Shown: positions 80-64,000 of the stretch, piece by piece
Numbering within the stretch: the first letter of the stretch is position 1
Layout of the letters: the number at the start of each line of letters is the position of its first letter
Program-made: the position numbers and the translations under genes
Assembly (NCBI GenBank): GCA_000091205.1
Contig: AP006487.2
Source of the DNA: Cyanidioschyzon merolae
Lineage: Eukaryota
Strand: one strand, 5' to 3'
Length of the DNA stretch: 64,000 bases
The notes under the pieces: model-generated
Databases searched by the model: none
What the model was told of the DNA's origin: nothing
Seen by the model: only the letters and a program-made list of their open reading frames with translations

Positions 80-2884
80 GTGTCTCGTACACCGCAGATA
101 CTAGCGACGACAACGGTCGAGACGCCTCGCCAACGTACGGAACCGGAGCGCCTTATCGCAAGATCGCCCAGTGATGCCCGTCATGAAAGTTACGCGACAG
201 AGAGCAATCTTTCTCACGGGACGCAAATGACCGCTTCATATCGCTCGCGAGCTGTGAAACCTACGCTGGTGGACGAGCGGCCGCCCACAGTGCCAAGCCC
301 GTCCGCCTCTTCAGCGCAAGCAATCCACCGCCAAGCAACCAAACCGGAGCAAGACGTCAGACAAAGCACGCGGGGGCATGCAGCGGCGCGAGCACCAGCT
401 GCATCCGCAGCATCCGACGATGCTGTGAGAGGCAACCGTTCATCAGCAAGCCCCAGTGAGGCTTCGGAAATCCGCTGGCCCCAACGCCTGGAGTTTGTCT
501 CCTCTGGAGAGCGTTCACTGACGCCAGAAAAACCACGCACACGAACAGACGATGCACATGTCGCTGCAAATTCATTGGATAGCGATATGAGATCCTTTCG
601 CACGGCGCCGGATGAACGGAATCCGGATACACCAGCCGAGCGCACCCTGGATGTGGCTGCATCTGGTTGCTCGGGAATCGTCCCGGACCCCAGTGCCGGA
701 GACGAAGATATTCTCGTTCATACGCAAGCAGCAGCAGCAGCAGCAGCTGCTGCTGCCGAAGCCCGTCTCGTTATTCAGCAAGAGCTCGCTCGACGTTTCC
801 AGGAAATTCGCCAGCAGCAGCGGGAGCATGCACATCCCGCACACCCCGAGCAACAGCAGCGGGAACAACGAGACCGTGCGACTGATCAGCAGCTGGATGT
901 ACGAGATACCTCGACAGTGGCAGCAGCAGCAGCAGCAGCCCCGTCGATCCGTACGGATCCGAGCGTTTTCGAAACGACTTGCTCGTCGGAGTGGTGCTCA
1001 AACCAGTCCTCCATTTCCCGTTCGCGATACGAAGCGATGAAGACGCGTGTAGCACTCATGAAAGAGCGCCTCGGCAAGATGATGCTCGCGGGCACCTGCT
1101 CGACAACGATCGTCATGAGTGCAGCGCCTGCCGAAGATGCCACCCGTTTCCCCAGACACGAAGCACCACCCAAAACGACTGCTGCTGCAATGCAGACACG
1201 GCACACGGCGAGTTCGCCAAGTTCCCTCGGTGCCGCATCGAATGCGCTTCAGCTAAGTCATGCTATCGTGAACCTCCATGCCGGTACATTCGGGGAGTTC
1301 AAGCGCCTCGAACCGCTGCCAGCACAAGCGGCGACACGCTGGAGCATGGAAATCGACTTTCTGCTATCGCCATGTGAGCAGATCGTCGTTCGTACGCCAG
1401 TCAGACGAACACTTCCAGACGGAACCAGTGTTGAAGTGTTAGAGAGTCGTCTGCGCGCAGATATCGGAGAGCACCTTCCACGACTACGCAGTTTGGATCA
1501 TGCGATCCGAGAAATGCTGCGTTCCTTTCGAGAGCTCAGCGGTGTGCTTCATTACGAATCAACGGCTACTCGAGGACCGGACTGGTGGATTGAACGCCCA
1601 CGAGTTCCCACCGAGGGCCTATCACCAGGCATCCGAGCGTTGTTGCAGCGCTCGTTCGCCGAGGCTCAAGATATCCAGCGCGTTGCTCGCAGCATTAACG
1701 AACAGGTCTTGCGTTCGATACCTTGTCCAACCCGCGAGTATTCCTGTAGCTGTTTCGGGTATGATCTCAGCGAGCTGACCAGCGCTTGGTCGCTGACCCC
1801 ACGGCGACGTCCGCTTATTCGCGTCCGCGAGGTGCTTGGCCCAGACCTCTACGAAGCAGTGACCAAGAACGCCGCCTTCAGTGCCGTTGCCTATGCTCGA
1901 ACTGCCGTGCTCCGCTTGTCAACGGATGCTGTGCTGCCGCTGGGCGTCGACGCGGATGCACAAAACGCAAAACTAACCCAACTGGTGGAGCGTCTGGAAA
2001 GAGCCGAGTTTGTGTATCGGCTGAAGATTGACAGACTGAACCAAGCAAGTCGCTTTGGGATTCCATGGCGCCGGGAGAAGCTCGAGCGTTGCTATGCTGC
2101 ACGTCGTCGGTGTGAGCGAGGTGCACACGCTTTACGGGAGATATTCACGGGGGTAGGCCATACAACCAGAGATCAGTGTGCCATTCGTTACAATACGGAT
2201 GTGGGCACAGCGATTCTCGAGGCATACGCCCGTGTTCTGGAACATCGGGCTGCGGCGATTGGCAAGCGCATTCGACTGGTACTAGAAGCGGATCAGCGAC
2301 AGCAACAGCAACTACAACAACAACAACATCAACGGCTGCGGTCTGGACGAGCAGGTGTGTCCCTGCGAGCATCAGGGTCGCGGCTGGAGCTTTCTAGTAC
2401 GCAGCGTGCCGACGCTTGTAGCAGCAGCAGCAGCAGCAGCGGCAGCAGCAGCGGCAGCAGTAGCAGTGGCTATCCTGCGAGCGACTTGCCGCCGCCGCCG
2501 CCGCCGCCGCCGCCTGCACTTGTGGAACGTCCTCGGACGATGCCAGCGGGTCTCTTTGCTCGCCAGCATCGCAGCAGCGCCTGTCGCTCGCACCACTGCC
2601 ACGCTGAGGAGCTCACCACCGAGGCCAGCGTATCGCAAGGCATGCGTTGCGGAGCTGCTGTTTCAGCGAACAAGGCATCACGCACTGATCCTCTCGCTGC
2701 CGTGAGAGACAGCGGCGCAGAGACGCTTCCGGTGCGACGCACGACGGCCTTGGCACTGTGGACGAACGCTCACCCGCCTGCACCAGAGCAGGCTATCGAC
2801 ACCAGTCCTGCATGTGGTCGGTCGGTGGTATCGAAGCAGCGAACGTCTCCAGAGACGGCATCCGAACATGAGCGACCTGCATAG
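80..2884 (+). CDS. PRONE-domain Rop/Rho guanine-nucleotide exchange factor-like protein with low-complexity N- and C-terminal extensions; possibly 5'-truncated by the window edge
   Basis: Translation carries the PRONE signature blocks in the canonical order: LQLSHAIVNLHAGTFGEFKRLEPL, VEVLESRLRADIGEHLPRLRSLDHAIREMLRSF, WWIERPRVPTEGLSPG...INEQVL and IRYNTDVGTAILEAYARVLE. These match plant RopGEF PRONE motifs (FGE.WRLEPL, VEVM.SRPRADIY.NLPALRKLD, KWWLP.P.VP..GLSE, I.YNKDVGKA.LESYSRVLE). The track start at 80 is a GTG, and the frame is open back to nt 2. The gene has CAG/GCA/CCG homopolymer-coding runs (poly-Q, poly-A, poly-S, PPPPPPPPP at ~2490-2516). Confidence 0.6.
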   Translation: MSRTPQILATTTVETPRQRTEPERLIARSPSDARHESYATESNLSHGTQMTASYRSRAVKPTLVDERPPTVPSPSASSAQAIHRQATKPEQDVRQSTRGHAAARAPAASAASDDAVRGNRSSASPSEASEIRWPQRLEFVSSGERSLTPEKPRTRTDDAHVAANSLDSDMRSFRTAPDERNPDTPAERTLDVAASGCSGIVPDPSAGDEDILVHTQAAAAAAAAAAEARLVIQQELARRFQEIRQQQREHAHPAHPEQQQREQRDRATDQQLDVRDTSTVAAAAAAAPSIRTDPSVFETTCSSEWCSNQSSISRSRYEAMKTRVALMKERLGKMMLAGTCSTTIVMSAAPAEDATRFPRHEAPPKTTAAAMQTRHTASSPSSLGAASNALQLSHAIVNLHAGTFGEFKRLEPLPAQAATRWSMEIDFLLSPCEQIVVRTPVRRTLPDGTSVEVLESRLRADIGEHLPRLRSLDHAIREMLRSFRELSGVLHYESTATRGPDWWIERPRVPTEGLSPGIRALLQRSFAEAQDIQRVARSINEQVLRSIPCPTREYSCSCFGYDLSELTSAWSLTPRRRPLIRVREVLGPDLYEAVTKNAAFSAVAYARTAVLRLSTDAVLPLGVDADAQNAKLTQLVERLERAEFVYRLKIDRLNQASRFGIPWRREKLERCYAARRRCERGAHALREIFTGVGHTTRDQCAIRYNTDVGTAILEAYARVLEHRAAAIGKRIRLVLEADQRQQQQLQQQQHQRLRSGRAGVSLRASGSRLELSSTQRADACSSSSSSSGSSSGSSSSGYPASDLPPPPPPPPPALVERPRTMPAGLFARQHRSSACRSHHCHAEELTTEASVSQGMRCGAAVSANKASRTDPLAAVRDSGAETLPVRRTTALALWTNAHPPAPEQAIDTSPACGRSVVSKQRTSPETASEHERPA

Positions 2885-2974
2885 ATGACGGCTTTGACCC
2901 GTCTACGCGGCATCTTTTCGAATGAACATCCCTCGAACAGTATGCTCATGGAGCGCGTCCGGCTTTCGTGAAGG

Positions 2975-3340
2975 TCATCCGCTGAGAGCGATGGCGGCAT
3001 GTGTCCGACGAACGCTCGAGCTTCGTTCACCGCGTCGACTCATTCTGGATCGACGCTGACGCAGGCACGTTTCGTAGGTATCGGCATCCAGGTTCATGAG
3101 CAGGGTCTGCAACTGTCGTGTCAGCTGTTGGATGCGCGAGTCCCAGTGACGCGCGTTCACGTAAATAGCCTCGGCGAGTACCGGAAACGTATCACTTCGA
3201 TACAGCAACAGCATTTGGCGAAACCATGAACGCGGTGTTTCCAACGCGGGATGCTGCTTGCGTCCATAGGTCTGCTGGTGGACTCCATGGTGTCCAGCGG
3301 GTCTGGACTCGTCAGCGGTATGGTGCAGCAAAGCGCGTCC

Positions 3341-3379
<39 letters not shown>

Positions 3380-3595
3380 ATCATCATCGTCGTCATTGTC
3401 ATGAAGAATGCGATTGGGGGTCGCATGGCCAACTGCGTCCCAGGGGTCGCCCGCTGAGCCATACTCGCGCCCCGAGTCATTCTCCAGGAGCAGCAAAAGC
3501 GCCTCCTCGGCGACGTCCCGGTGCGCAGAAGTCATACAACGCGCCAGTCGGCGAAACACCAGAGGCACCAGCGATGCATCGCGGGAATCGGGTGC

Positions 3596-3632
<37 letters not shown>

Positions 3633-8723: not shown

Positions 8724-9675
8724 AAGTCGATGCGGTCCCAGAGCGCAGTGCGCTGCACGGACGGTGTCCAGCGTCTGGAGCCGTCAAGAGTCGTGAACGC
8801 TGGTTTGTTCACAGCGTTTCGGCTGGATTCGGCGGCATCGGGGTCATCGTGTGGTTCGCGGATGCATCATCTCGGAGACGTTCCCTGCTGAGCCGCATCT
8901 TGTTTCGGGGATTTGTGCGAACACTTGTCGCAGGAAAAGAGGGAGAACCACGCGATCGCTGGCAGCGTCGTATGCAGCGATGTCGTCACTGAGTGGTACG
9001 GCTTGAGCGCGTTCAATTTAGCGATGCTCGCTGGGAGCTATTTTGTCTCTGCGGAAAGGCAGTCGTCGAGGCTGTTCATACCAGATGCTTCATTTTATCG
9101 AGCAGCGCAGACGATTGTTGTTGAATTCGCTATTGGACGGAGGAGAACAGCGCGCTTGCGCTTGCTTTTGGAGCGAATTGCATCCGAGCGATGCCCGGAG
9201 AGCGCGCATGCACGCTCTGTCTTTTGCACGCGAGTATCATGCGCACTCAAAGACTAGAGATCTGGAGAGCAGTTTGAAAGCCCCTAGCGCGCTAGCATTT
9301 GCCTAGGTCGGAATGCGCTTCCAGCGATGGATCTGAGCCCCGAGCGCCGTGCAAGCAACAGCGAAGCACATGCCGCAGTTGCCAAGAACGCAACCACGGG
9401 TTTTTTGTCCGCAGGCGTCCCGCGTGAGCGAAACGCAACCGAGTTCAGTGCTTGCTGGCTGAACACCCGAAGATCGTGAAACGCACACTGTCCAAATCAT
9501 CGATATAGTAGGATGTCCAAATAGACAGCATGCTTTAGAGCTACTCGAGGCATGGTAAAAAGATACAAGGCACCGCATCTGCATCGTCTACGCAAATCTG
9601 CACCGCGATCCCAACGACAACGAGCCGCAGCAGCCGAGTCCGACGAGGCATGCGCACACATCGAGTATCGAACAG

Positions 9676-10117
9676 CTACCGCTTGCACAAAGCAGCACCG
9701 CCATCATGAAAGGTAAAGCACGCGATGCGTTTGAGCGTCAAAGGCAAACACCCGTGTCAGTTTCAAATGGAACGGGTTCACTAGGCTACCGCTTGCACAA
9801 AGCAGCACAGCCATCATGAAAGGTAAAGCACGCGATGCGTTTGAGCGTCAAAGGCAAACACCCGTGTCAGTTTCAAATGGAACGGGTTCACTAGGCTGAC
9901 GCTTGCACAAAGCAGCACAGCCATCATGAAAGGTAAAGCACGCGATGCGTTTGAGCGTCAAAGGCAAACACCCGTGTCAGTTTCAAATGGAACGGGTTCA
10001 CTAGGCTACCGCTTGCACAAAGCAGCACCGCCATCATGAAAGGTAAAGCACGCGATGCGTTTGAGCGTCAAAGGCAAACACCCGTGTCAGTTTCAAATGG
10101 AACGGGTTCACTAGGCT
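9676..10117. repeat. Intergenic tandem minisatellite, 110-bp unit x 4 copies
   Basis: The unit gcttgcacaaagcagcac(c/a)gccatcatgaaaggtaaagcacgcgatgcgtttgagcgtcaaaggcaaacacccgtgtcagtttcaaatggaacgggttcactaggct(a/g)(c/a)c recurs at 9681, 9791, 9901 and 10011 with two variable sites. Confidence 0.85.
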
Positions 10118-11514: not shown

Positions 11515-11549
<35 letters not shown>

Positions 11550-14900: not shown

Positions 14901-15467
14901 ACAGCTTGCGGCATTGCGTTGAGCCGCTCAGCGGATACCGCTCGACAGCGCACCGCGCATCCAGGGACGATCCAGTCAAGTCGTCGTCGAGTCGCCTTTC
15001 ATGGACGGTACGCGATGATTGCGGAGCGTTCACGCCAGCAACAGCAACAGCAACAGCAACAGAGTGCGCACATCAACCTGGTTTCTCTGGTGAATCAGTT
15101 TGCAGTGCTGGTGCCTGCGATATTTTCGCGGCTTGCGGAATGTATATGCAGCTCGCAGATGGATGTGAGTGAACGTGCGATTTACATGGTTAGCAACCAG
15201 GAGTTAATCGGAGAACTAGTTGAAAAGTATCGCGCCCAGGTCTATCCGATACTGGTACCCGCGGTGTACCGAACGAGCTCCGAGCACTGGTCTCAAGAGG
15301 TGCGGCACATGGCAACCGTGCTTGCGGGGCTTCTCGAGCAGCTCGATGTGGATCGTTTTCGACAATGGGCACGAGCCGGGCACATGGAGAGCCCTTCGCA
15401 AACTTCACCTTGTCATGCGGAGCGTGAATCACAAGACTTGCACAGAATGCTCAGCTATGCCTCGTAA
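12000..15467 (+). CDS. PP2A regulatory subunit B56 (B-prime) family protein, paralog B, with a ~700 aa low-complexity N-terminal extension and a ~75 aa insertion in the core
   Basis: The track ORF starts at a TTG at 11952; the first in-frame ATG is at 12000 (MNELAEQEG...). Core matches: FAANLFRPLPL...EPTL, DPVWPHLELVYSLFIEFS, SEDPRERDALRTVVHRLYARYAALRPSIRK, ALDILAAIVAGFSTPLREEHRYYFRRVLLPMHKARGLARYHRELTMCIVFYVSKDVSLGVEAIRTLLRHWPQTSARKQLLFLTEMNDIL, PAIFSRLAECICSSQMDVSERAIYMVSNQELIGEL, YPILVPAVYRTSSEHWSQEV. It ends with poly-Q. Confidence 0.75.
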   Translation: MNELAEQEGVQRSRTAARPIRPLSRAWSAGSMGFGEHHQASWVTPEYESTTIGVSARKPQLERPIACGGSSKVASGSVAGERGASNASPLPPPHETPEPHFPEQTERVSLELEPSPDSFLQDEPELRKTTGADRNGAALRSQSLQRALDALVQPYAPPQREQRRTRVTETQRAQPASPSIEACGSTRITSEQRIVAQTERPLWNDNTGALRRPVQQLHPRHELFVQMMRDLGAFEGTSSRGNGDTSGEAAALTLSEILNLPPIRTIVDDEARARAIALKLEFCTVVPSLPEWIAETEYNQRVERWLHYRHAQALQSLRTMVAISDQLEPESSESVQEESKRQPIGGEHGNLGGMYVGLLAHKSSRAGSIERTSPPRMRASRSAPALGQLACEDTMLEGRAALRNVVERFTRLATNKNACRAAAEQQGVAPGDTQQGTVAGLEVPRTTQHSGTGVVCSAGASAAPAASSIGALSGSTAPDRSVLPEESSSPTLSAMPATTTTDEPGDYKQEPLIRTPADLMDLKRAVLADLLDAAEQARQHGESAFTGIWKEQEREQASAPPSPRMPFIFQITSSGNALERPVRDAGMSAASWSCRSQTSSSFFCYPLLSKWVRFFAANLFRPLPLRKRLAEPEYLSERETPTLHYVSERSSSSRASAARPGSPAPVEGAAARGCVADIDHVVFVDDELTNPWNLLDPVWPHLELVYSLFIEFSLCRIGQVPEGVQLGEELAAKHFNERFLHALLSLFVSEDPRERDALRTVVHRLYARYAALRPSIRKVMAEVVFARPIAEDDVFRQISWFPHCAHMRTSSALARTTCPAETRSRSERYPQRARCTNLPESAALAADCGLRVQNTEVFLAGSHPAAIWGGLCYNGVSEALDILAAIVAGFSTPLREEHRYYFRRVLLPMHKARGLARYHRELTMCIVFYVSKDVSLGVEAIRTLLRHWPQTSARKQLLFLTEMNDILTACGIALSRSADTARQRTAHPGTIQSSRRRVAFHGRYAMIAERSRQQQQQQQQQSAHINLVSLVNQFAVLVPAIFSRLAECICSSQMDVSERAIYMVSNQELIGELVEKYRAQVYPILVPAVYRTSSEHWSQEVRHMATVLAGLLEQLDVDRFRQWARAGHMESPSQTSPCHAERESQDLHRMLSYAS

Positions 15468-36676: not shown

Positions 36677-37855
36677 ATGAACGTACTTCAAACACATCTG
36701 CTACAAACCGTGAAAGCACATTTGATAACACGCTCACGTAAGTGGAACACTATTGAGGTAAACGAGGACGACACCGACTCCGGGTGGCGGCAACTTGATG
36801 CGTCGTGCAACCGGACGCACGCCCGGCATGGCGCCAAAACCTACAAACGCCACTGCCTATCTGGTGCGGCGCCTAGGCTTGTTGCCATGGTGGAGTCAGC
36901 GCCCCTGGGGCTGCTTGAGTCTACCGAGGAACTTGAAAACCGTCTGCTACAATCATATGTGTCCCTGATCAAAAATCTCACGCAGCAAAACGCTTCCTCC
37001 AATCCGGAGGACGCTCACGGCGGCAGTGAGAACCCCGCAGGGGCAGCTGCGGCACCAGGTGCGACAGCCGCCGCAGAAGCAGCGGTTGCCCGGCACGAAC
37101 ACCCTGGCGGCAACGAAACTGCAAAGGCAGATGCGCTAACAGATTCTGTCTTTTCGGACCTATGCTACGTACCAGAGGACTTTATGGTGCCGCCACACTG
37201 CATACCCGTGCGAGCTGACGTCCGGTTTGCTGACTGGGACCAGATCGCAGCAGCAGCAAACGGAAACTACGACGTTATTCTGATGGACCCTCCGTGGCAG
37301 CTCGCCACCGCAAACCCAACTAGAGGTGTGGCGCTCGGCTATAACCAACTGAGCGACGAGTCGATCCTGGCTATTCCCTTGGAAAAACTGCAGCGTTGCG
37401 GACTCCTCTTGATATGGGTAATCAACGCCAAGTACCGAGTGGCTTTACAGATGTTCGAACGCTGGGGCTATCGGCTCGTCGACGAAATCGTATGGGTGAA
37501 GCTGACGGTGAATCGGCGCTTGGCGAAAAATCACGGCTTTTATCTACAGCACGCGAAAGAGACGTGCCTGGTCGGTGTGAAAGGGAACGACCTTTCCGCA
37601 TTGAGCACTGCACCGGGCATGCCCCGACCAGATGTGATTCTCAGCGAACGTCGCGGACAGAGCCAGAAACCAGATGAGCTCTATGAATGGATCGAGGCGC
37701 TCGTGCCGAACGGCAAGTACATCGAGATATTCGCCCGGAAGAATAACCTGCGCAACTTTTGGGTCAGCATTGGGAATGAGGTCACTGGCGAGAGTTTCGA
37801 ACAGGCGCTACCGCCTGAACTTTGCAAGCAGCTGCGAGAAGAACTCTCGACGTAA
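36677..37855 (+). CDS. MT-A70 family N6-adenine methyltransferase (DPPW catalytic motif), 392 aa, no CCCH zinc-finger region
   Basis: The ATG at 36677 was verified. Matches: YDVILMDPPWQL, LLIWVINAKYRVALQMFERWGYRLVDEIVWVKLT, LQHAKETCLVGVKG and QSQKPDELYEWIEALVPNGKYIEIFARKNNLRNFWVSIGNEV. These align to the METTL3 methyltransferase domain (DPPW, WGYRRCEDICWIK, KEHCLMGIKG, EKP..IF..IE.F...RRLHLFGRD...GWLTVG). Confidence 0.75.
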   Translation: MNVLQTHLLQTVKAHLITRSRKWNTIEVNEDDTDSGWRQLDASCNRTHARHGAKTYKRHCLSGAAPRLVAMVESAPLGLLESTEELENRLLQSYVSLIKNLTQQNASSNPEDAHGGSENPAGAAAAPGATAAAEAAVARHEHPGGNETAKADALTDSVFSDLCYVPEDFMVPPHCIPVRADVRFADWDQIAAAANGNYDVILMDPPWQLATANPTRGVALGYNQLSDESILAIPLEKLQRCGLLLIWVINAKYRVALQMFERWGYRLVDEIVWVKLTVNRRLAKNHGFYLQHAKETCLVGVKGNDLSALSTAPGMPRPDVILSERRGQSQKPDELYEWIEALVPNGKYIEIFARKNNLRNFWVSIGNEVTGESFEQALPPELCKQLREELST

Positions 37856-38137: not shown

Positions 38138-38336
38138 GTACTGTACTGTACTGTGCTATACTGTACTGTACTGTACTGTGCTATACTGTACTGTACTGTA
38201 CTGTGCTATACTGTACTGTACTGTACTGTGCTATACTGTACTGTACTGTACTGTGCTATACTGTACTGTACTGTGCTATACTGTACTGTGCTATACTGTA
38301 CTGTGCTATACTGTACTGTACTGTACTGTACTGTAC
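38138..38336. repeat. Pentanucleotide microsatellite (TACTG)n interrupted by TGCTATACTG units, ~200 bp
   Basis: The run gtactgtactgtactgtgctatactgtactg... is visible. It lies in the convergent 3' intergenic region between the MT-A70 and ABCD genes. Confidence 0.85.
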
Positions 38337-38834: not shown

Positions 38835-41189
38835 CTATTCGAAGAGCGCGGGCTCTGTCCAGGTCATCGATTTCGCGCTTGTGCTCTCGATGTCAAGCAA
38901 TTCCCAGTCACATACGGGTTCAGGATCTGGCGAGGGATGATGGCGGTCATGTCGTGAGCGCGGGCGCAGGCGCAGCATTCTGGTGTGATACTGGAGCAAT
39001 GAGGGTCGGTGCCCCACCGAGACGACAGCTGCACCGAGTTGTCGGATTGCTGCGTACACCCGCGCCTCGGAGGCGATATCAAGCGCCGATGTGAACTCGT
39101 CACCAATCACTAAATCCGCACCATTAAGCAAGAGTCTGGCGACGCCCAAGCGTTGCTGCTCCCCCAACGAGAGAACCTCTGACCAGTTTCGCACGGCGCG
39201 AAGACCCTCGGGAAAGCGCTGCGCCAGTTCACTGAGACCCACGGCTTCGAGCACCTGCCAGAGGCGCTCTGCGAGCGGGCTCGTTCGGGAGTCACGTGCG
39301 AGTTCCGTTCCAGCGCTGGAACGTCCATTGAACGTAACCGTTTTCAGCGCGATAGAACGCAGCTCGTCTTGTTGCGCGACGGGCGGTGTCTGTGGATAAT
39401 ACAGGTTCTCGAGTAGTGAACCTAGCGTGCAGTACGGCTTCTGCGGCAGGAAGAAGGTCGATTCGCGGGCCGAGCGTCGCACTTGGCCTTGGCCTCGTCG
39501 CCAGAGACCGGCGATAGCGCGAAGCAGAGACGACTTGCCAACCCCCGATGGTCCCGTCACCAGGAGGCGCTCCCCGCGGCGAAGCTGAAACGACAGGTCG
39601 GCAAACAGGACCCGTTCGGTGAACAGCGACGTGCCCTCTTTGGCTGTATCGACGGCGCTGCGGTCGCGCGGTACACACAGGGTCAGTTTGTCGACCTGCA
39701 ACGGATACGGATCCGTCGCGCTCACAAAGTTCATCCGAATCCAGCGTTCAGCATTCTCTGGCTTATTCAAAGAGACGGCAGCGTCCAGCATTTCCGCAAA
39801 CTCACCGAGTCGATCGACACCGGCACTGAAAGCAGTCAGTGCCTCAAAGCGGGTTACAAATAGGGATAAGTCGCTCAAAATATGATTGAAAGCAGAGTAG
39901 GACTGGTTAATGACTCCAAGTTCGATCCTGCCGGCAAAATAAAGAGGTGCAACCACAAAACCCGGCAGGACCTGGATCAAATATCGGTAGCCTGTCGTGA
40001 AAAGCTCCAGATTTCTCTGCCAGACGATCAGTTTTGCCTGATTATCTACCGCTCGTTTGAGAAGCTCTTCACTCTCGTTGCGCTCTCGCTCCTCTCCACG
40101 ATAAAAGGCAATAGACTCGGCATTCTCCCGCACCCGAACGAGTGCATAACGAAAGTCAGCCTCGCGCTGAAGTTGCTGAAAGTTCAACTGCACAAGACGG
40201 CGCCCGATCGCAGCCGTTGCAAAAGTACCAAAGCCACTGTACACTATGAGCACTCCGAACAACTGCGGGTAAATGCTGAATAGTATGCTACTGAACGAAG
40301 CCAAATCCAGAATAGAGGTCAGCACTGTAAGGCCAAACGACAATGACGTGGCCGTAAAGGCATTCACATCTTCAGCGAGTCGCTGGTCCGGGTTATCGAC
40401 TTCAACCTGGGGCCTCTCCGGTGCTGCCGCGTGTCCATCCATTTCCTGGTTCTCCAGAAGCAGGCTCTGTTGGGCTTGAATCAGGTAATATGCACTGTTG
40501 GAAAAGTATCGTTCCAGGAGGAAGCGCGTCAGCCAGGCCCGCCAGCGCAGCGCCAGACGGTCGCGGGCGTAGCTGTACCACACAACGACCGGCACGCCGA
40601 CGAGCATCGCACCCAGGAAGAGCAGCATTTCTTGGGTGAACTGCTCGGGGTTACGATTGCTGAGCGCCGTCCAAAAATCACGACCAATAAAGGAAAACGC
40701 CACGGATACACCGGACTGGAGTAGCGTCAGCGCAAACACGGCCGCTAAGTCTGTTTTCGCCGTACGAGACTCGCGCCAGTATGGAGTAGCAAGCTTTCGA
40801 AACAGACCCCAGATTCGTCTCAGTTGTGTACGGCGCTTTGCTGCCGTGTCGTTCTCGCGTCCGTCGCCGTCATCCGCGCCTTGCGGCAAGCTCCTACCGC
40901 CGGCAGACTGCCCAGTGAGCTCCTCTTCAAAGGTGCCGAACCCAGAGAAAAGATTTCGCTGGAGAAAGCGTCTCAACTCTTGCTCAAGCGTACTCGAAGT
41001 TTGTCGCTCAGCGGGCCGTTCATCAGGCGGCGGTGGTTGAGCGTTACGTGCACCCGTGTCCCTGCAGAATACTCTCAGCGCTCGGGTGATGTTGCGTTTT
41101 GAAACTCGGTGGTTCATGGGTGCTCGGTGTCGGTACCCGTTCGACGCTACGCCCGGCACGAAAGCAAAGGGAACCTGTCGCCTATTCAT
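38835..41189 (-). CDS. ABC transporter subfamily D (peroxisomal/plastid-type) half transporter
   Basis: Walker A: [25 protein letters not shown] signature: [15 protein letters not shown]. Walker B: [13 protein letters not shown]. The ABCD-type TMD includes [34 protein letters not shown]. The track start is a GTG at 41213; the first ATG is at 41189, verified. Confidence 0.8.
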
Positions 41190-49154: not shown

Positions 49155-51398
49155 CTACGGGCACGCATGTTGAATCACGACATCCGAGTACCGACGCTGA
49201 ACGAGTTCAGCTTCGGATCTGCTCTGAACGAGTATCCAGATTGAGCGTATCTCCCGTGTATGGAGACAGAGGCGCCAGGGCGTGTGATTTGCATCCGCAT
49301 CAGATGCTTGTCGCGAATCACGGGGCCAGAGCACTGGTGTGCGTCCGATGACAACGCCACGAGCGGCATCGAGCACGGTTACCACTGCTGAGGTTCGGGC
49401 TGCGTGCAATCGTCCGCGACGATGGCGGATCAGGACTTCATCTCGCAGTTGCCAGCTGCTGCAGAGACAAAGTTCCCCCTTTGAGACATCGTCCCGCGGG
49501 ATGTCCACTCGATATGCGCACTGCGCGGGGAGCGATACGGAGCTGAAGTTGGAGCTGGAGCTGGAGCCGGAGCCGCTGTTTGGCCTATGTTCGAGCAGAT
49601 CGAGGTCGCTTCTGCGCGCTGCAGCGCGACTCGTGTGGCGTTCCTGGATCTTGGCGATCGAGCAATTCGCGCCTGCGTTCAGCGCGACGACTTCCCGGAG
49701 AAATCCCCCCGTGAGCAGTGCTCCGAGTTCAACGCAGTACTTGCAACTATTCATGCTCACGGGCAATCGCAGATAGACGCCGGCAGTGACCCCAGGGTAC
49801 ACCAGGTCCGACGGGTCTATCTCTGGGAGACGGCTTGTCTGCAGTATGCCGAAAGCTTCGCGCCAAACATAGACACCGCTCTGGTTAATGGAAATCGTCT
49901 GGTGAACGGGAGCAAGCATGATATCCGGATCCCCGGTCCCAATGATTGACGTCTCAACTGTGACGAGGACACTCGATCCACCTAGGAAGTAGTGTGGTGC
50001 CAGAAGCGAGCCCCATGGAGCGATCGAGAGTTTCGGTTTGTCCTTCTCGAGCGCGAGCACGTCGCGAAGCAGGTTCACGGACCCGAAGCCCCCGGGATCG
50101 CGCTCCAAAAACGCAATCACATTCCTGAGACCAGCGTCCGGCGTTCGTCCATGAGCGGGCCTGTATGTCGTGAACGCATCCACAAGGTCTCGCGCGAACA
50201 GAATCCCATCGACGGACTGGTCGGTTTTACGCACGTGCGACCACGTCTGGTTCAGCGAGTACATCGATATTCGTTTTGCTGACGAGATGCAAAGATTCAG
50301 ATGCGCGCCAACGTAAATGACCCGCTCAATGCCTCGTCCTTCGAGGACAGCAACGAGCTCCACGAGATCGTCGGCAACGAGAACATCATTCTCGGGATCC
50401 ACGTCCAGGAGCGGGTGCAGGGCCGACCAACCGTACTGCTCCTCGCATCGTTCTTGCGGGTCCGCCGAGCACATGCAGCCGGCAGGCCGGGGTAGGACGC
50501 GAGTGCGTCTCGCCGCCTCGTACGCCATGTCCACGATGCTGGTGGTAGCACGTAGGGCGTCCAGCTTAGCTCTTGTCGTGTAGCGTCGGGCGTTATCCCG
50601 CATGCGCCGCTCTCCGGCATTGCCTCGTTGCTCTAGAAATGCGACGATGTCTGTGGGGGCATGGATGACCAGCATGCCACGTTTCCGCGCCTCTCGGAGA
50701 GCAAGATTCAACGGTGGAATAAGCAACCGCTCTATTCTGGATGCTGCGGTCTTGCACCAGTGGGTGTCCCACAGGTCGACTACAATCAATGCCATCCGAT
50801 CGTAGCGCTCCTGTACATAATGCTCTCGTGCGATAATGTTCGGGTTCGAGGCCACACCCCAGCCATCGTCTGCGAACCATGTCGCGTCCATTGCGGTTGC
50901 CATTGGGTCGCTCGCTGGGCCCGGCATCCCAGAGGCCAGTCTTGCAGTATCCACGAACGACTGTCGCAGCGCACGGCGGCGAACAGGAAATGTGGCTATG
51001 CGCCTTGGATAGAGCAGCGGCGCCTGCTCGTCATCCAGCAGCGCTGTGTGATGAGACAAGTCTTGCGACCAGTACGCAGCGTGGACGGCTTTCATCAGCC
51101 CCGCGGTACCTGATCTCGAAGCATCAACTGCATCCGCAAAGTCGTAAACGAATTGGTTGTGAGAATGACCGTTTCGTGATTGGGCAAGCGCTAAAACAAA
51201 CGCTGATGGCGGTTGAAGCGATCCTCGGTACCAGAGCGCAAACCGACGATTCAGGGCGAGTGAGCGCGCGACCAACGCCAGTCCAAGAACAAAGCAAACG
51301 ACAGCACATAGGAAACAAGCAAGCACCCGGAACTTGTTACGCAGGCTCGTACTTCGGACTCTAAAGGGGTTCACTGGCCTCCGTGCTGGTTCTTGCAT
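49155..51398 (-). CDS. Signal-anchored (type II) membrane protein with an isochorismatase-like cysteine-hydrolase domain and an unrecognised C-terminal domain
   Basis: I infer the start at the ATG at 51398 (MQEPARRP...), followed by the TM segment FRVLACFLCAVVCFVLGLALV. Isochorismatase-like blocks: MALIVVDLWDTHWC and GIERVIYVGAHLNLCISSAKR...VDGILFARDLVDA. The track ORF extends to 51800 only because the frame stays open through the upstream 100-bp repeat. Confidence 0.5.
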   Translation of the reverse strand: MQEPARRPVNPFRVRSTSLRNKFRVLACFLCAVVCFVLGLALVARSLALNRRFALWYRGSLQPPSAFVLALAQSRNGHSHNQFVYDFADAVDASRSGTAGLMKAVHAAYWSQDLSHHTALLDDEQAPLLYPRRIATFPVRRRALRQSFVDTARLASGMPGPASDPMATAMDATWFADDGWGVASNPNIIAREHYVQERYDRMALIVVDLWDTHWCKTAASRIERLLIPPLNLALREARKRGMLVIHAPTDIVAFLEQRGNAGERRMRDNARRYTTRAKLDALRATTSIVDMAYEAARRTRVLPRPAGCMCSADPQERCEEQYGWSALHPLLDVDPENDVLVADDLVELVAVLEGRGIERVIYVGAHLNLCISSAKRISMYSLNQTWSHVRKTDQSVDGILFARDLVDAFTTYRPAHGRTPDAGLRNVIAFLERDPGGFGSVNLLRDVLALEKDKPKLSIAPWGSLLAPHYFLGGSSVLVTVETSIIGTGDPDIMLAPVHQTISINQSGVYVWREAFGILQTSRLPEIDPSDLVYPGVTAGVYLRLPVSMNSCKYCVELGALLTGGFLREVVALNAGANCSIAKIQERHTSRAAARRSDLDLLEHRPNSGSGSSSSSNFSSVSLPAQCAYRVDIPRDDVSKGELCLCSSWQLRDEVLIRHRRGRLHAARTSAVVTVLDAARGVVIGRTPVLWPRDSRQASDADANHTPWRLCLHTREIRSIWILVQSRSEAELVQRRYSDVVIQHACP

Positions 51399-51488
51399 AA
51401 GCCCAGAGGGCGTTTGCGCTTTTCGAAAGGCGAATCGAAGCCAAAATAGGCGGCGCGAGGATCGTGGCGGCGGCCGTTTCCTACCAGG

Positions 51489-51788
51489 TTCGAACCGCGC
51501 CCCTGTTTGTATACAAGGATATCGGAATACGAGGAAACGAGTACATGAAGCGAACCGGCGTGTACTTTCTGATGTTTGAGTCTCTTTCTTCGAACCGCGC
51601 CCCTGTTTGTATACAAGGATATCGAAATACGAGGAAACGAGTACATGAAGCGAACCGGGGTGTACTTTCTGATGTTTGAGTCTCTTTCTTCGAACCGCGC
51701 CCCTGTTTGTATACAAGGATATCGAAATACGAGGAAACGAGTACATGAAGCGAACCGGGGTGTACTTTCTGATGTTTGAGTCTCTTTC
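51489..51788. repeat. Tandem repeat, 100-bp unit x 3 copies, immediately 5' of the isochorismatase-like gene
   Basis: The unit ttcgaaccgcgcccctgtttgtatacaaggatatcg(g/a)aatacgaggaaacgagtacatgaagcgaaccgg(c/g)gtgtactttctgatgtttgagtctctttc starts at 51489, 51589 and 51689. Several track ORFs (51371..51646, 51464..51679, 51576..51779) are translations of this repeat. Confidence 0.85.
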
Positions 51789-53169
51789 CATTTTTATCAA
51801 CAGTAGCCTTTTCGGGATTTTTCTTTGAATGCTTGCTTTTCCGCTCCGTTGTTTTCGGATTTTGAAAGCACTCGCCGGGTGCGTCCGGTGAGCTACGTTT
51901 TCATCAGTCCAAGAGTGTTGATAGCAGCGATCATGAGACAGTTTTCGACGACTCCAGCTGCTTCAGCGTATTGCATACGCAGGTGGTGGTTGCGATGTAC
52001 GCTTCGTCTGCCATTTTCGTTTGCTCTCTTGACAGCGTCAGAGCGCTTTTCTCAGCGGTGATAATTGACTATGCACGGGTCTTCTCATATGCCCATAACG
52101 TATAGTTCTCTGGGCGCCATCTGGTGCCTCGTGATGGCTTGCTTCATCGTCTGGTATATGCCTCTGGTGGCTGCCGAAAGTCTCCCTGGATGCCCTCCAC
52201 CGTTTCTGCGCTCAGTGCCGGACACAACGATCACGGGGATCATCTGGGCAATGCCCCAGCGAGTGCACTGTCCACAGCACGGGCAAGTGCACAATCGTTC
52301 ATTCGATAGAGGATTTGCGGAACTCGATGTTTTCCATGGCGAAACAAGCACCAGACGGGAAATCCTGGCCAGAGAACAAGCCGATAGCAATCGATCAGAG
52401 AACGATCCGTACTTGCAAATCGGTGACGCATTTCGACTCGAAGCGACCGCTGCAATGGCTCGTGTCCGAGTTCGAGACCGTTTTCCATGAAAATAGAAGA
52501 GATGGAAGCGTCTGGGAGCATATCCCATGAGAGGTGCAATGCAGCTGTTGATTGCCGCTTCGTCAATCGCCTGGAAGACAGAAGAATTTATCTTTCGATC
52601 AGATTAGATTATGTAACGTGACGAGTTTAGTGAACGGCCAACAAAGGCCTCTGAACAAGTCATCGATGGATAACGTCGATGCTTTTTTCATAGTCCATTC
52701 AGGGGCGCGAGTTGCAGTCAGTGGGCGTCGCCTTGACATAGAAAGATCGAACACTTAAAGCATGTGCGAGTCGAGGACACTAAACGTAAGGAACGGGAAA
52801 GAGTGCAAGTTTATACGTATGCGCCGGACAATGATACCATTCAGTCTACGAACCCCTGTTCAAGGGTATCCTCAATCATTTTGATTCTGTTGACGTAAAC
52901 CAGGAGCAGAGCGTTGAATATCCTACTCTGTAAAGACGACCGAGCATCCCTAAGCTCGTTTACATCTGTTGACTTTTATTGCTCCGCTTCAGGTGTCGAA
53001 GCAGTACATCAAAAAAAAAATAGAGTTCGGAAGAAACATTGCAAGGCAGCAACCGAGCGCATCGTCCACTGCTGTCTTTAGATTTGACGCAGACGAGACC
53101 AGTCTTTGCGAGCTGGACGCTACGAGTGGACGTTCCGTTTCAGGGAGGTGTACAAGCGCTTTGAAAGCG

Positions 53170-58470: not shown

Positions 58471-60801
58471 ATGAGCTTTTATCCACGTGCAGGAGCTGGC
58501 GGCCCTCGAGCGCTGGGATCGCGCCCCGGCGACCTGAGTGGAGGCCTTGCGGGGAACCGTCCTGCATCGCTGCAGCCAGCTCGCTCGACTTCGGGTCAGA
58601 CAAACTCGAACGAGGCTGTGAGGCTTCTCCAGCTGAGTCCCACTGAACGAGAGGCATACCTTGTCTGGTACCGGGAGGTGCGCGACCCCGCAACCGGTTA
58701 TGTGCCTGGTGACGCAGCAGCTTCGCTTCTGCGCCGCTCTAACCTATACAAAGATCTGCTACGACAAATTTGGGTTTTGGCGGATACCCGTCGACGTGGG
58801 TATCTGGATCAGGACGAGTTTTTTGTTGCCTTGCGACTTGTTGCCATATGCCAACGCGGTGGCGAGCCTTCCCTGGATAGCTTGCGGCGCTTTCGCGGGA
58901 TGCAGCTCATCCCACAAATCGATCCGGCTTCTGCTTCGCGCCCCAGTGCTCAAACAACGCCTGGGGCTGCATCCGCTGCGCAACCGCGCGCTTCTTCTAG
59001 CACCAGCGCTAACCCGGGTGAAACGCTCTCCTGGACGCCAACCTATGAGCAAATCGCAGAATACGATGCGCTCATGCGACAGTATTGTGGAGGCGGTACC
59101 CAGCCGGGTCGGCATCAGTCAGCAGCAAGGCTGGTACGCCTTGCGGACTTGCGCATGACCGGCTCTATCGCGCGGGAGGTCTTTCCGAAACTCTGTCAGC
59201 ATCGCTTAAGCAGTGCCATTCTTCGAGATATCTGGGAGCTCGCCGACCAGGATCGAGATGGGCAGCTGGATTTGCAGGAGTTTCGCTGCGCTGCGCACCT
59301 TTTGACTGTTCTGGGTCGTCAGCCTGCGGACAAGGCGGTTGTGCCGCGCCCACTTCCCCCTGCGCTACGGAAGCAAAGTCTCCGTCTGCGTTTTGGAGAT
59401 GGAGCGAATACAGCGGGCGAGTTTACGGAGGCAGCGCCCTCGGTGCCCAGTGACGCGCTATCGGTTATCTCGTCGCCGAATGCGGAAGTGCCGGCTTCGC
59501 GGAATACGGACCTGGCAGGTGCGTTTTCAGCAGCCAGCAAGTCCGTAGAGGATGCACAGCGTCGCCTGAAAGAACTTCGGGATCATCTGGATCTGCTGGA
59601 AGTGCGAGGTCGTGCACTGGCGGAAAAGAAGCGCGTCACGCTGGCAAACAGCAGTACCAGCACGCTCGAGCGCATCTATGCGGAAGAGCAGGCCTTCGTA
59701 CGAGACGCCCGCGGCGTCGTTGAGGCATGTTTGTTGGATCTGGGCGGAACTCCCGGCCAGTCGCAGAGCGAATCAGTTGCAACGGCGTCAAGACCGGGAC
59801 CCGAATTAGAATCAGAACGCACGATGACCGCCTGGGGTCCGTCATTTTCGTTGAACCTGCAACAGCTGCTTATTAAAGCGAAGAACGAGACAGCCCGGGA
59901 ACGAGCGAAGGTGAAGGTTCTCGAAGAGGAACTCCAGATCGCCCGACGTCAGATTCAAGATATGGTTGCGACCGGGGCTACCGCCCCGGACAAGTTCGGC
60001 ACGGGTCGCACTGAGGGCCATCGTCGAACCCGAAACGTGCACGGGGCGAAGCTCGAGCCCCATGAACCCGGCAAAAGCGCTACACAACGACGAGCGCCAG
60101 GTGGACAGAAGAACGTGAGTGGCTCTCTGCTGGACGACTGGTCCCAAGACGACGCTGATGTGAACGCTGATGACGACGAAGCCCGCAACCAGAGAGCTCG
60201 AAGCAAACGGATCGAGCGCGCAGCGTACCGATTTTCCGCTGAGGAGCAGGTCCCCGAGGACAAGCCAATTGTACGAGATGATCTGGTGGATGTGCCACCC
60301 GAATGGAGTGCCGCTGCGGAGCATGCGCTTTCCGCGAACGAGTCCCGGCAACAGAGCAAGCTGGCCTCCACAGGTACTGCTCGTGGAGCAGCGGATTCCC
60401 GGGCGAGAGGCGACTCGCCGTACCGGCCTCCGCGGTATCAAGGCATGACGCGAGATGCAGCTACCGCTTTTGGCGCTTATATTCAGGACGTTGACGGGGC
60501 CAGAAGCAGACGTTTCGCGGACGACGAACCACGAGATGAGCGTCCTTCGGAGCGGCGGAGAGCGTCTCGCCAAGCGGCACAGTGGCGCCAGACTAGCGTC
60601 GCCGAACCCAGCGAGGATGAGAACTGGCGCAGCGGCAGCGATTACATAGAGGTATCCGAGAGTGTCCACGAGACGACACAGGGTGGCTCACAGCGAGCCG
60701 CCCAGAACCGCTCGGGAGCGATGACCGTCGGCAGCACCGCCGAGGATGACGACGACGAGTGGTCGCGGTCAGCGTCGACTGCTATTTTCAGCTACTGGTA
60801 G
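58471..60801 (+). CDS. EH-domain protein (two Eps15-homology domains plus coiled-coil and an acidic tail; Eps15/Ede1/End3-like endocytic adaptor)
   Basis: EH-like units: REAYLVWYREVRDPATGYVPGDAAASLLRRSNLYKDLLRQIWVLADTRRRGYLDQDEFFVALRLVAI and EYDALMRQY...ARLVRLADLRMTGSIAREVFPKLCQHRLSSAILRDIWELADQDRDGQLDLQEFRCAAHLL. Coiled-coil heptads: KVKVLEEELQIARRQIQDM. The track start at 58450 is a TTG; the first ATG is at 58471. Confidence 0.6.
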   Translation: MSFYPRAGAGGPRALGSRPGDLSGGLAGNRPASLQPARSTSGQTNSNEAVRLLQLSPTEREAYLVWYREVRDPATGYVPGDAAASLLRRSNLYKDLLRQIWVLADTRRRGYLDQDEFFVALRLVAICQRGGEPSLDSLRRFRGMQLIPQIDPASASRPSAQTTPGAASAAQPRASSSTSANPGETLSWTPTYEQIAEYDALMRQYCGGGTQPGRHQSAARLVRLADLRMTGSIAREVFPKLCQHRLSSAILRDIWELADQDRDGQLDLQEFRCAAHLLTVLGRQPADKAVVPRPLPPALRKQSLRLRFGDGANTAGEFTEAAPSVPSDALSVISSPNAEVPASRNTDLAGAFSAASKSVEDAQRRLKELRDHLDLLEVRGRALAEKKRVTLANSSTSTLERIYAEEQAFVRDARGVVEACLLDLGGTPGQSQSESVATASRPGPELESERTMTAWGPSFSLNLQQLLIKAKNETARERAKVKVLEEELQIARRQIQDMVATGATAPDKFGTGRTEGHRRTRNVHGAKLEPHEPGKSATQRRAPGGQKNVSGSLLDDWSQDDADVNADDDEARNQRARSKRIERAAYRFSAEEQVPEDKPIVRDDLVDVPPEWSAAAEHALSANESRQQSKLASTGTARGAADSRARGDSPYRPPRYQGMTRDAATAFGAYIQDVDGARSRRFADDEPRDERPSERRRASRQAAQWRQTSVAEPSEDENWRSGSDYIEVSESVHETTQGGSQRAAQNRSGAMTVGSTAEDDDDEWSRSASTAIFSYW

Positions 60802-61849
60802 AGCAGGCGTGGTGCCTGCTTACTTTTCTAGCGCAGATACGATGCTTCTGGACTTGGTACGTGAGCAAAACGGGAGGAATTTTGGCCGAACAAAGTCAGC
60901 AAGTGTATAAACGCGGTTCAAGCGAGCACGTCACCTGATTCCAGGTTCAACATGTCGCTTGTCTCGAGAATAGAAGCCACGGATTCGAGTGTTGGGAAAC
61001 GCCTCTGGGTACCTGGAAGTACGCGCCGTGTCGGCTATGTTGCCGACGCCAGCGACAAAAACGAAAACAGGTCACCGATGGGGATGTATGCGCTCTCCAA
61101 CAACAGCCGTATAGACACAAAAAGGCTGCGGTCCGTCTCTTGCCTACGTTATTCTAATGTCGATGAAATATCCCCGCTCGATGCATTGCCAGAGGCATTG
61201 GACGATTTTTTGGTCCAGCGTCGAGTGTGAATAGCGTGGGCAGCGCCAGACGCATCGTCCAGGCCGAACAGCGACGAAGGAATCGGTGCAGGTCAGCCCG
61301 GAGGCGTTTTCTTTGTCATCACATTGCGAGACGCTTCATGGCTCATTTGAGGGACTTGAAAGCGCACGAAATTGGCTTGGATATAACGTCAGCGTATCAG
61401 GTTACACATGTGGATACAGGACCTGAGCCGTCGACACCAAAAGAGCATTGTTGAAGCGTGCACTTTCAGGGCGTACACAAGCAACCATGCTGACGGGTCT
61501 GGAGCGATGTATCGAAGCAGATACACTCGGATACGCGACTAGTGCAGATTTATGGGAAGCGAAGTCATTTCTCGTGGAGCGCTATTGTCTGCGACTGGAC
61601 TCTGGTCAGTTTTTACTTTGGAATAAACGCATGATCGATCTGGACACCGTCCGTATGCTGAGCGTATCCGGGGCAGTTGCAGCGTCGCTAGCGACGCTTC
61701 AGCGGTCGCTTGCACATGGACAGGATGACTCGCAGATGTATATGCAGGTGTCCACCGGAGAAACGTACGCATTCAGGTCTCTGTTCCATACGTCAGAAGC
61801 GAGAGTCCCTGGAGCGAGGTCTTGTGACTGGCTATCGACGACAACGGCT

Positions 61850-63190
61850 CATTCACGAAAACGACATTGATTCCAGTCAACGCAACGCTCTGCAGTAGTG
61901 CACCTCTGGATGTGCGACTGCTCGCGTGCGTCCCTCTTCCGTTACACTTCATGTGCATCGATTCAGTCACGAAAACGACATTGATTCCAGTCAACGCAAC
62001 GCTCTGCAGTAGTGCACCTCTGGATGTGCGACTGCTCGCGTGCGTCCCTCTTCCGTTACACTTCTGGTGCATCGATTCAGTCACGAAAACGACATTGATT
62101 CCAGTCAACGCAACGCTATGCAGTAGTGCACCTCTGGATGTACGACTGCTCGCGTGCGTCCCTCTTCCGTTACACTTCATGTGCATCGATTCAGTCACGA
62201 AAACGACATTGATTCCAGTCAACGCAACGCTATGCAGTAGTGCACCTCTGGATGTACGAGTGCTCGCGTGCGTCCCTCTTCCGTTACACTTCAGGTGCAT
62301 CGATTCAGTCACGAAAACGACATTGATTCCAGTCAACGCAACGCTATGCAGTAGTGCACCTCTGGATGTACTGCTGCTCGCGTGCGTCCCTCTTCCGTTA
62401 CACTTCATGTGCATCGATTCAGTCACGAAAACGACATTGATTCCAGTCAACGCAACGCTATGCAGTAGTGCACCTCTGGATGTACGAGTGCTCGCGTGCG
62501 TCCCTCTTCCGTTACACTTCAGGTGCATCGATTCAGTCGCGACAACGACATTGATTCCAGGCAACGCAACGCTATGCAGTAGTGCACCTCTGGATGTACG
62601 AGTGCTCGCGTGCGTCCCTCTTCCGTTACACTTCAGGTGCATCGATTCAGTCGCGACAACGACATTGATTCCAGTCAACGCAACGCTATGCAGTAGTGCA
62701 CCTCTGGATGTACTGCTGCTCGCGTGCGTCCCTCTTCCGTTACACTTCATGTGCATCGATTCAGTCACGAAAACGACATTGATTCCAGTCAACGCAACGC
62801 TATGCAGTAGTGCACCTCTGGATGTGCGACTGCTCGCGTGCGTCCCTCTTCCGTTACACTTCTGGTGCATCGATTCAGTCACGAAAACGACATTGATTCC
62901 AGTCAACGCAACGCTATGCAGTAGTGCACCTCTGGATTTACGAGTGCTCGCGTGCGTCCCTCTTCCGTTACACTTCATGTGCATCGATTCAGTCGCGACA
63001 ACGACATTGATTCCAGTCAACGCAACGCTATGCAGTAGTGCACCTCTGGATGTACGAGTGCTCGCGTGCGTCCCTCTTCCGTTACACTTCAGGTGCATCG
63101 ATTCAGTCGCGACAACGACATTGATTCCAGGCAACGCAACGCTATGCAGTAGTGCACCTCTGGATGTGCGACTGCACGCGTGCGTCTGCG
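61850..63190. repeat. Large tandem array, 114-bp unit x ~11.8 copies (1.34 kb), with point variants at four sites
   Basis: The unit gattccagtcaacgcaacgct(c/a)tgcagtagtgcacctctggatgt(gcgact/acgagt/actgct)gctcgcgtgcgtccctcttccgttacacttc(atg/tgg/agg)tgcatcgattcagtc(acgaa/gcgac)aacgacatt has a period of exactly 114 bp (for example 61869 to 61983). It generates the two repeat-derived ORFs 61773..63212 (-) and 61867..63261 (+). Confidence 0.9.
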
Positions 63191-63270
63191 CGCTCATAAC
63201 ACGCTTCAGCACTTGCAGTAACGTTCGAGTTACGTTTTCTTCTAGTCGCGTGAGACACTAGACTACCGGA

Positions 63271-64000
63271 ATGGAGAAGGTTTGCGACCTGCCTCAGAGT
63301 CCTATATGGAACTGGACTGCGAAGCTCTCACCGACCTCGAGTGGGACGTATACCTCTGTTCCGTTCCCGTCGCATGTTCGGAACGCGTTCAAGCGCTCGG
63401 GAGCCACGTTGACGGAGCGACACGACGCTACAGGCGAGCTGGTTCGTTTACTCGACGACCTCTCCACAGAGTTCCGGTGGATAGCAGCACGCACTCGGGA
63501 AATGTTTGTGAAATCGCTAGAGTCGACACCTTTTACGCCTCGGTTAGTCACACAGCAGTTGTACTTTGCACTGTGTCACGATGGATATGCGTGTCTGTTG
63601 GTTAGTAAAGACCAGAAGGAGCCGATGTCGATACCCCCGGATATGCCGTCCGGGAGTTATGTGATTGTGTTAGTGAGTCTGGATCTTGATGAGGAGCTTG
63701 CGCCCTCAGAAGGCCTCGTGGGCTCCCTCTTCTCCGTCTACAAGCGAAAGACCGCACCTGGCCGAGCCGGTCGGCGCGAGGACTTGCAAGTTTGCTTCGC
63801 TGACCAGGTAGCGGCGGGCTATGCACTTTACGGTAGTTCCACACAGCTCTGCTATTGCATGCGAGGCAATCCCGGAGTGTATCGCTTTGTTTTGCATCCA
63901 GTGGCCAAGCAGTTCTTCATGTGTCGAGGCGGCCCGATCGAGTTCGGTTCCGAGTACGATCGCGGTCGACAGCGCTTGCAGACTGTACTCGCTGTACCGA
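63271..64000 (+). CDS. Fructose-1,6-bisphosphatase/sedoheptulose-bisphosphatase-family (FBPase-fold) protein, 5' part only; the CDS continues past the window end. The metal-binding motifs are substituted
   Basis: The frame (codons starting at 63271 ATG) is open to the window end and is not in the ORF track because no stop lies inside the window. The translation ...ATGELVRLLDDLSTEFRWIAARTRE...YACLLVSKDQKEPMSIPPDMPSGSYVIVLVSLDLDEELAPSEGLVGSLFSVYKRK...DLQVCFADQVAAGYALYGSSTQLCYCMRGNPGVYRFVLHP matches FBPase blocks (GTGEMTQLLNSL..AV, CVLVSEEDKNAIIVEP, YVVCFDPLDGSSN, GTIFGIYRK, GRNLVAAGYALYGSATMLV, VNCFMLDP). SEEDK is replaced by SKDQK and FDPLDGSS by VSLDLDEE. Confidence 0.6.
   Translation, partial: MEKVCDLPQSPIWNWTAKLSPTSSGTYTSVPFPSHVRNAFKRSGATLTERHDATGELVRLLDDLSTEFRWIAARTREMFVKSLESTPFTPRLVTQQLYFALCHDGYACLLVSKDQKEPMSIPPDMPSGSYVIVLVSLDLDEELAPSEGLVGSLFSVYKRKTAPGRAGRREDLQVCFADQVAAGYALYGSSTQLCYCMRGNPGVYRFVLHPVAKQFFMCRGGPIEFGSEYDRGRQRLQTVLAVP

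Follow-up and report, generated by a model that had tools for sequence, protein, structure and literature searches.

Eukaryotic minisatellites, or variable-number tandem repeats (VNTRs), with units of 10 to about 100+ bp, are the closest described counterpart of the array analysed here. Like them, it occupies a single locus, consists of head-to-tail units, is non-coding, forms a mosaic of variants that differs between populations and shows exchange between its copies; its 114-bp unit lies at the long end of their size range. Tandem repeats in the promoters of Saccharomyces cerevisiae, most of them AT-rich and short in unit, reportedly vary in length and modulate expression via nucleosome positioning. 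The array shares with these repeats a position directly upstream of a gene in the compact genome of a unicellular eukaryote, but its unit is 114 bp long with a GC content of 52%, and published expression values show no obvious effect. Satellite and centromeric repeats have only the tandem organization in common with it, whereas the array is one undispersed 1.34-kb locus that is not AT-rich and lies between two expressed genes. [quoted passage not shown] The array is not described in the C. merolae repeat literature that we consulted (PMC1955436, PMC7291098, PMC11050394).

The array lies on chromosome 5 of C. merolae 10D, in the 2.47-kb spacer between CME126C and CME127C, and was analysed within a window of 64 kb (the whole stretch of DNA under study, from whose first letter all positions are counted). 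Tandem Repeats Finder placed it at 61849-63186, with a period of 114, 11.7 copies, 96% matches, no indels and a score of 2431. Printed in register, the copies resolve into 11 full 114-bp units and an 84-bp partial one (11.74 copies, head to tail), each with 1-5 differences from the unit consensus, and a 25-mer from the unit that occurs 11 times in the window was found 0 times in 100 dinucleotide-preserving shuffles. The edges are sharp: the 114 bp on each side bear no relation to the unit, and local alignment of 200 bp from each flank against the unit, in search of its origin, gave scores no better than those of shuffles. The GC content of the array, 51-53% (about 52%), matches that of the adjacent intergenic DNA. 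Its 3′ edge stands 84 bp upstream of the CME127C start codon at 63271, and its 5′ edge falls 22 bp before the stop of a small open reading frame (ORF), 61448-61870. The features of the locus are as follows:

58471-60801, plus strand: CME126C (BAM79344.1), an EH-domain, Eps15-like gene and the upstream neighbour in a conserved gene order
60802-61848, no strand assigned: unique intergenic DNA 3′ of CME126C, including the unsupported ORF 61448-61870
61849-63186, no strand assigned: minisatellite of 11 full copies and an 84-bp partial copy of a 114-bp unit with sharp boundaries and the consensus TCAGTCACGAAAACGACATTGATTCCAGTCAACGCAACGCTATGCAGTAGTGCACCTCTGGATGTACGACTGCTCGCGTGCGTCCCTCTTCCGTTACACTTCAGGTGCATCGAT
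61867-63261, plus strand: incidental 464-amino-acid (aa) ORF across the array in unit frame 0, closed by the TAG at 63259-63261
61773-63212, minus strand: incidental 479-aa ORF across the array in unit frame 1, on the opposite strand
63187-63270, plus strand: unique spacer of 84 bp between the array and the CME127C start codon, with no similarity to the unit
63271-64000, plus strand: 5′ part of CME127C, 'similar to fructose 1,6-bisphosphatase' (FBPase; BAM79345.1, 390 aa)

The initial annotation had described a 1.3-kb array of about 12 copies of an exact 114-bp unit, ending about 85 bp before the ATG of the FBPase-like gene. Its extent, copy number and distance from the gene agree with the values measured here, and the tandem 114-bp arrangement is real, but the copies are near-identical (about 96% alike) rather than exact. 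It had also placed the start of the array inside the small ORF, which holds as a 22-bp overlap with the end of that ORF; the ORF itself is no supported gene, because it has neither homologue nor annotation, the highest polymorphism density of the region and no third-position bias. In the syntenic loci of the relatives described below it had no tblastn match, and both it and the two repeat ORFs, whether read from ATG or from alternative starts, are absent from a collection of 15 billion proteins. Across seven C. merolae-type sequences, the part of the small ORF at 61487-61848 has 3.3% variable sites, the densest of the region, compared with 0.73% in the CME126C coding sequence; by codon position these sites are distributed 6:2:4 in the small ORF, and in CME126C 11 of 17 fall at the third position.

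Exact protein look-ups matched four proteins of the window to C. merolae 10D and placed the two flanking genes, for which BAM79344.1 (CME126C) and BAM79345.1 (CME127C) are consecutive accessions, and the FBPase-like gene was matched by Pfam PF00316 (E = 2.4e-16). In the genome-ordered table of the 2026 reannotation, which added 219 RNA-seq-supported genes to C. merolae and interleaves the new CMX genes in that order, CME126C and CME127C occupy adjoining rows. No gene model lies between them in either the 2007 annotation or the 2026 RNA-seq reannotation.

The array is a single-locus element and not a genome-wide satellite, as judged across metagenome contigs, the 64-kb window and viral contigs. 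An exact scan of 241 million metagenome records with the unit 25-mer returned 5 contigs, all of which align to the array locus at 98.6-99.5% through the left flank, the right flank or both. A further 10 places with the identical arrangement (9 new contigs and a second copy of a known one) were reached via the CME127C protein. The window holds no second copy of the 114-bp unit, and the scan of viral contigs yielded no match to it. Between a locus-specific element and a generic satellite, an alternative that the initial annotation had left standing, the metagenome matches support the former, since every one of them falls at the array locus.

The two long ORFs arise because 114 is divisible by three (38 codons) and the unit is stop-free in one frame per strand, as had been proposed for the 464-aa ORF on the plus strand and the 479-aa ORF on the minus strand. 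Plus frame 0 and minus frame 1 are the only stop-free frames among the six. Such frames are unremarkable: shuffled units of the same composition were open on both strands in 21% of cases and had at least two open frames in 28%. The plus-strand ORF is in the same frame as CME127C, from which it is parted by a single TAG (63259-63261) that lies 9 nt before the ATG and is kept in 14 of 14 sequences; the common frame is a one-in-three coincidence.

Neither strand of the array is coding, because synonymous and nonsynonymous variants occur in near-neutral proportions, a stop allele exists, codon usage is not that of genes, and there is no credible homologue and no gene model. Pooling 48 unit copies from the window and from 13 metagenome contigs of the same locus gave 18 distinct variants, 5 synonymous and 13 nonsynonymous in the plus frame (28% synonymous, against 26.6% expected without selection) and 4 synonymous and 14 nonsynonymous in the minus frame (22% against 25.1%); the expectation takes all single-base changes as equally likely, and the test rests on these 18 variants. 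In contig L011 a natural allele, C2>A, interrupts both frames with a stop. When the codon log-likelihood was calibrated on 11 supported window genes, the array scored -0.014 bits per codon in plus frame 0 and -0.127 in minus frame 1, compared with +0.06 to +0.16 for these real genes, each in its true frame. Ribosome-profiling data for C. merolae exist (PMC11808204; GSE273424, Mogi et al. 2025, cited in PMC12989068).

Homology searches with the array ORFs point the same way. There was no domain-level Pfam match, no match to either ORF in a PDB sequence search and none among 5.8 billion proteins searched by word index. HMMER, run in full against 1.84 billion representatives, gave 4 matches, all to unrelated repeat proteins at 26-30% identity. 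The best of these, P0145 (E = 2.5e-27), is an unrelated protein of 1798 aa that contains another repeat, 35 aa long, and is 30% identical; it was rejected as a homologue because its score is inflated by repeat-on-repeat alignment. The Pfam matches of the minus-strand ORF (Ycf66_N, PsaN and others) were likewise set aside, since they add up repeated matches that are each below threshold and include 0 significant stretches.

The initial annotation had preferred a non-coding array to a repeat protein, a preference with which the substitution, stop-allele, codon-usage, homologue and annotation tests all agree. Its overall picture of a non-coding, locus-specific element therefore stands, but the reason it gave, that all variants are nonsynonymous on both strands, does not: A66G and A69G leave the encoded residue unchanged in both frames, and A42C does so in the plus frame.

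Copies of the unit exchange sequence, by unequal exchange or gene conversion, and the multi-copy array is older than the split between populations. This follows from the reshuffling of variants within strain 10D and between populations. In 10D, the four-gamete test detected every possible allele combination at 12 of 36 informative site pairs, and across populations the variable unit positions 4, 11, 29, 42, 66, 68-70, 74, 103 and 104 recur in new combinations. The variant A74, for example, is found only in the terminal partial copy in 10D, and in contigs L008 and L018 in internal copies too. As a multi-copy array, the locus persists across populations that are about 0.7-1% diverged; the published divergence of 10D from the Yellowstone strain MS1 is 0.71%, and a PacBio assembly exists for C. 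merolae MS1 Ha3 (PMC13353863). Metagenome contigs that span the array hold 0.74, 1.74 or 2.74 copies compared with 11.74 in 10D, and at least 7 of the 14 distinct contigs end within it; these counts, which come from short-read assemblies, cannot be read as copy-number polymorphism because the collapse of repeats in such assemblies gives the same picture.

The array is specific to the C. merolae lineage. We compared the locus with an uncultured relative (L002/L003, 82% protein identity), Cyanidiococcus yangmingshanensis (L004) and Cyanidium caldarium (L005), in all three of which the order of EH-domain, FBPase-like, proteasome alpha, AMP-binding and porphobilinogen deaminase genes is conserved. 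DNA similarity to the relatives breaks off at the EH stop codon and returns at, or within about 20-80 bp of, the FBPase-like ATG (in the uncultured relative exactly at 63271). Nothing in the spacer between the two genes is alignable in L002/L003, L004 or L005, and all of them lack a tandem repeat at this place; the Cyanidium spacer measures no more than about 220 bp. Because the flanking order is kept in three relatives without the repeat, we infer by parsimony a gain in the C. merolae lineage, with the relatives' intergenic DNA too diverged for alignment.

The relatives bear intergenic arrays of their own, unrelated to the 114-bp unit: a 51-bp repeat of 3.3 copies in Cyanidiococcus (L004 14980-15145), about 220 bp upstream of the AMP-binding gene, and a 94-bp repeat of 2.1 copies in the uncultured relative (L002 4020-4212). 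For this reason, small locus-specific minisatellites seem to occur generally in such compact genomes as these.

Several other repeats were found in the window. CME106C, a MARVEL-domain gene with about 296 transcripts per million (TPM) in diploids and about 0 in haploids, is separated from CME108C by 3.3 kb, and in this spacer a 110-bp array of 4 copies (9675-10117, 98% identity) lies far from the start codons of both genes. A 100-bp array of 3 copies (51489-51788) falls within the GenBank model of CME123C (49158-51791, minus strand; BAM79342.1, 878 aa, start at 51791). Metagenome orthologues of CME123C are 745-747 aa long, which corresponds to an ATG at 51398, 90 bp downstream of the 100-bp array on the gene strand, and contig L008 has 2 copies of this array, a number that would shift the frame. 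The annotated N-terminal 131 residues of CME123C are therefore probably a longest-ORF artefact running through a non-coding repeat. These two arrays resemble the 114-bp array in size class, in their intergenic or upstream site and in high copy identity, but they have far fewer copies and are unrelated to it in sequence. The 114-bp unit showed no similarity to other large-period arrays in the window or in the relatives, and the three window arrays are thus independent births rather than one family. An m6A-methyltransferase-like gene (36677-37852, plus strand) and an ABC-D transporter gene (38838-41189, minus strand) converge on a spacer that holds an array derived from (GTACT)n at 38138-38336, with a 15/25-bp periodicity and 8 copies of 25 bp. 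Perfect trinucleotide runs (AGC, GCC, TGC, CTG and GCA; 9-16 copies) occur in long ORFs at 2420-3630, 11515-11548 and 15036-15062, where they presumably encode poly-Q, poly-A or poly-S.

Lying 84 bp from the start codon, the array must abut or overlap the CME127C promoter, and the intervening spacer (63187-63270) presumably contains the 5′ UTR and/or the core promoter of the gene. For one characterized C. merolae gene, transcription starts about 165 bp upstream of the ATG (PMC12989068); if CME127C resembles that gene, transcription would begin inside the array. Published values for CME127C are 132-154 TPM in C. merolae 10D, where the array is present, and about 149 TPM in C. merolae MS1 Ha3; the presence or absence of the array was read from the sequences of 10D, Cyanidiococcus and Cyanidium. 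The orthologues of two array-less genera are expressed at 114-150 TPM (Cyanidiococcus) and 79-133 TPM (Cyanidium), a comparison across species that is rough and refers to one growth condition. The similarity of these values in 10D, MS1 and the two array-less genera speaks against a large constitutive influence of the array on CME127C.

The main rival to a minisatellite of little consequence is a regulatory VNTR, which we consider unlikely. In this alternative, which the initial annotation had raised, the array would be a copy-number-variable cis-regulatory module in which the unit tunes CME127C through a transcription-factor site or nucleosome spacing. It draws on the position of the array in the sole upstream region of the gene, with its end 84 bp from the ATG and transcription possibly starting within it, on the 0.74, 1.74 and 2.74 copies of the spanning contigs as against 11.74 in 10D, and on the second window array, the 100-bp repeat of 3 copies, which stops 90 bp upstream of the probable CME123C ATG. 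However, the low copy counts come from assemblies that collapse repeats, with at least 7 of 14 contigs ending in the array; CME127C mRNA is about equal in 10D, MS1 and the two array-less genera; no conserved motif or structure was found in the unit, whose variant density is about that of neutral intergenic DNA; and the third large-period array of the window is far from any start codon. A broader version, for which we see still less of a case, holds that minisatellites near genes, with units of about 100-114 bp and an end about 85-90 bp ahead of a start codon (that of CME127C or CME123C), mark a promoter-associated mode of duplication and form copy-number-variable modules. If it were true, natural C. 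merolae populations could tune the expression of single metabolic genes via array copy number. A role in chromosome or RNA biology (a source of non-coding or small RNA, an insulator between CME126C and CME127C, a replication origin or a centromere-associated repeat) is very improbable. Nothing direct speaks for it beyond the length of the array relative to the compact spacers of this genome and its retention in all sampled populations, and the array is missing from relatives with the same gene order. The best Rfam match (E = 0.27) reached 20 bits, short of the gathering score of 50, so that no family passed the threshold; a tRNA search of the array found none, and the DNA fold z-scores, -1.1 and -0.24, are not significant. 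To our knowledge, C. merolae lacks Dicer/Argonaute machinery. Its centromeres are AT-rich and are not known to contain repeats, whereas the array has the GC content of the adjacent intergenic DNA. Each chromosome has one CENH3 region (PMC3744952), which weighs against a centromeric role.

Protein-coding explanations fare worse. A repeat protein that evolves fast or arose de novo, encoded on either strand, or a repeat N-terminal extension of CME127C by read-through of the TAG, is suggested by the 464- and 479-aa ORFs with in-frame ATGs, by the frame that the plus-strand ORF shares with CME127C across one TAG, by metagenome gene callers that predict this plus-strand ORF and by the statement of Mogi et al. 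that transcribed C. merolae ORFs tend toward translation. Against it stand the near-neutral substitutions in both frames, a natural stop allele, non-genic codons, the lack of a credible homologue, the absence of the ORFs from the 2007 and 2026 annotations and of the sequence from the relatives. Two or more open frames arise by chance in 28% of units, a shared frame in one of three cases, and the TAG is kept in all 14 sequences, so that we regard coding as extremely improbable. An artefact of the reference assembly deserves practically no credence: tandem arrays longer than a Sanger read are prone to copy-number mis-assembly, but 14 independent metagenome contigs, drawn from many samples, have the unit at the array locus, in runs of up to 3.4-3.7 copies before they break off, and copy-specific variants in the reference allow one unique tiling path.

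We therefore favour, with a probability of about 0.78, a lineage-specific, single-locus, non-coding minisatellite with little or no effect on the cell beyond a longer region upstream of CME127C; that there is little or no cellular effect is the most likely case. By this account, tandem duplication of a 114-bp intergenic segment would have followed the separation of C. merolae from the nearest relatives with sequenced genomes, and strain 10D would have come to hold about 12 copies. The copies would be homogenized and reshuffled by unequal crossing-over, replication slippage and gene conversion, and the long ORFs would be side effects of a 38-codon unit that happens to be stop-free in one frame per strand. 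What the analysis shows is the array itself, its confinement to one locus and one lineage, its freedom from coding constraint and the exchange between its copies; the mode of origin and the neutrality or near-neutrality of the array are what we infer. The persistence of the array in multiple populations is compatible with some constraint, without being evidence for it.

As one more locus-specific minisatellite in the finished genome of a model red alga, the array carries little broad biological weight. Its practical meaning is more definite: long ORFs that run through such arrays should stay out of gene annotation, and those who use the CME127C upstream region as a promoter, or target the spacer by homologous recombination, should be prepared for a 1.3-kb repeat that is prone to recombine. 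If its copy number is polymorphic, the array may serve as a marker for typing C. merolae strains.
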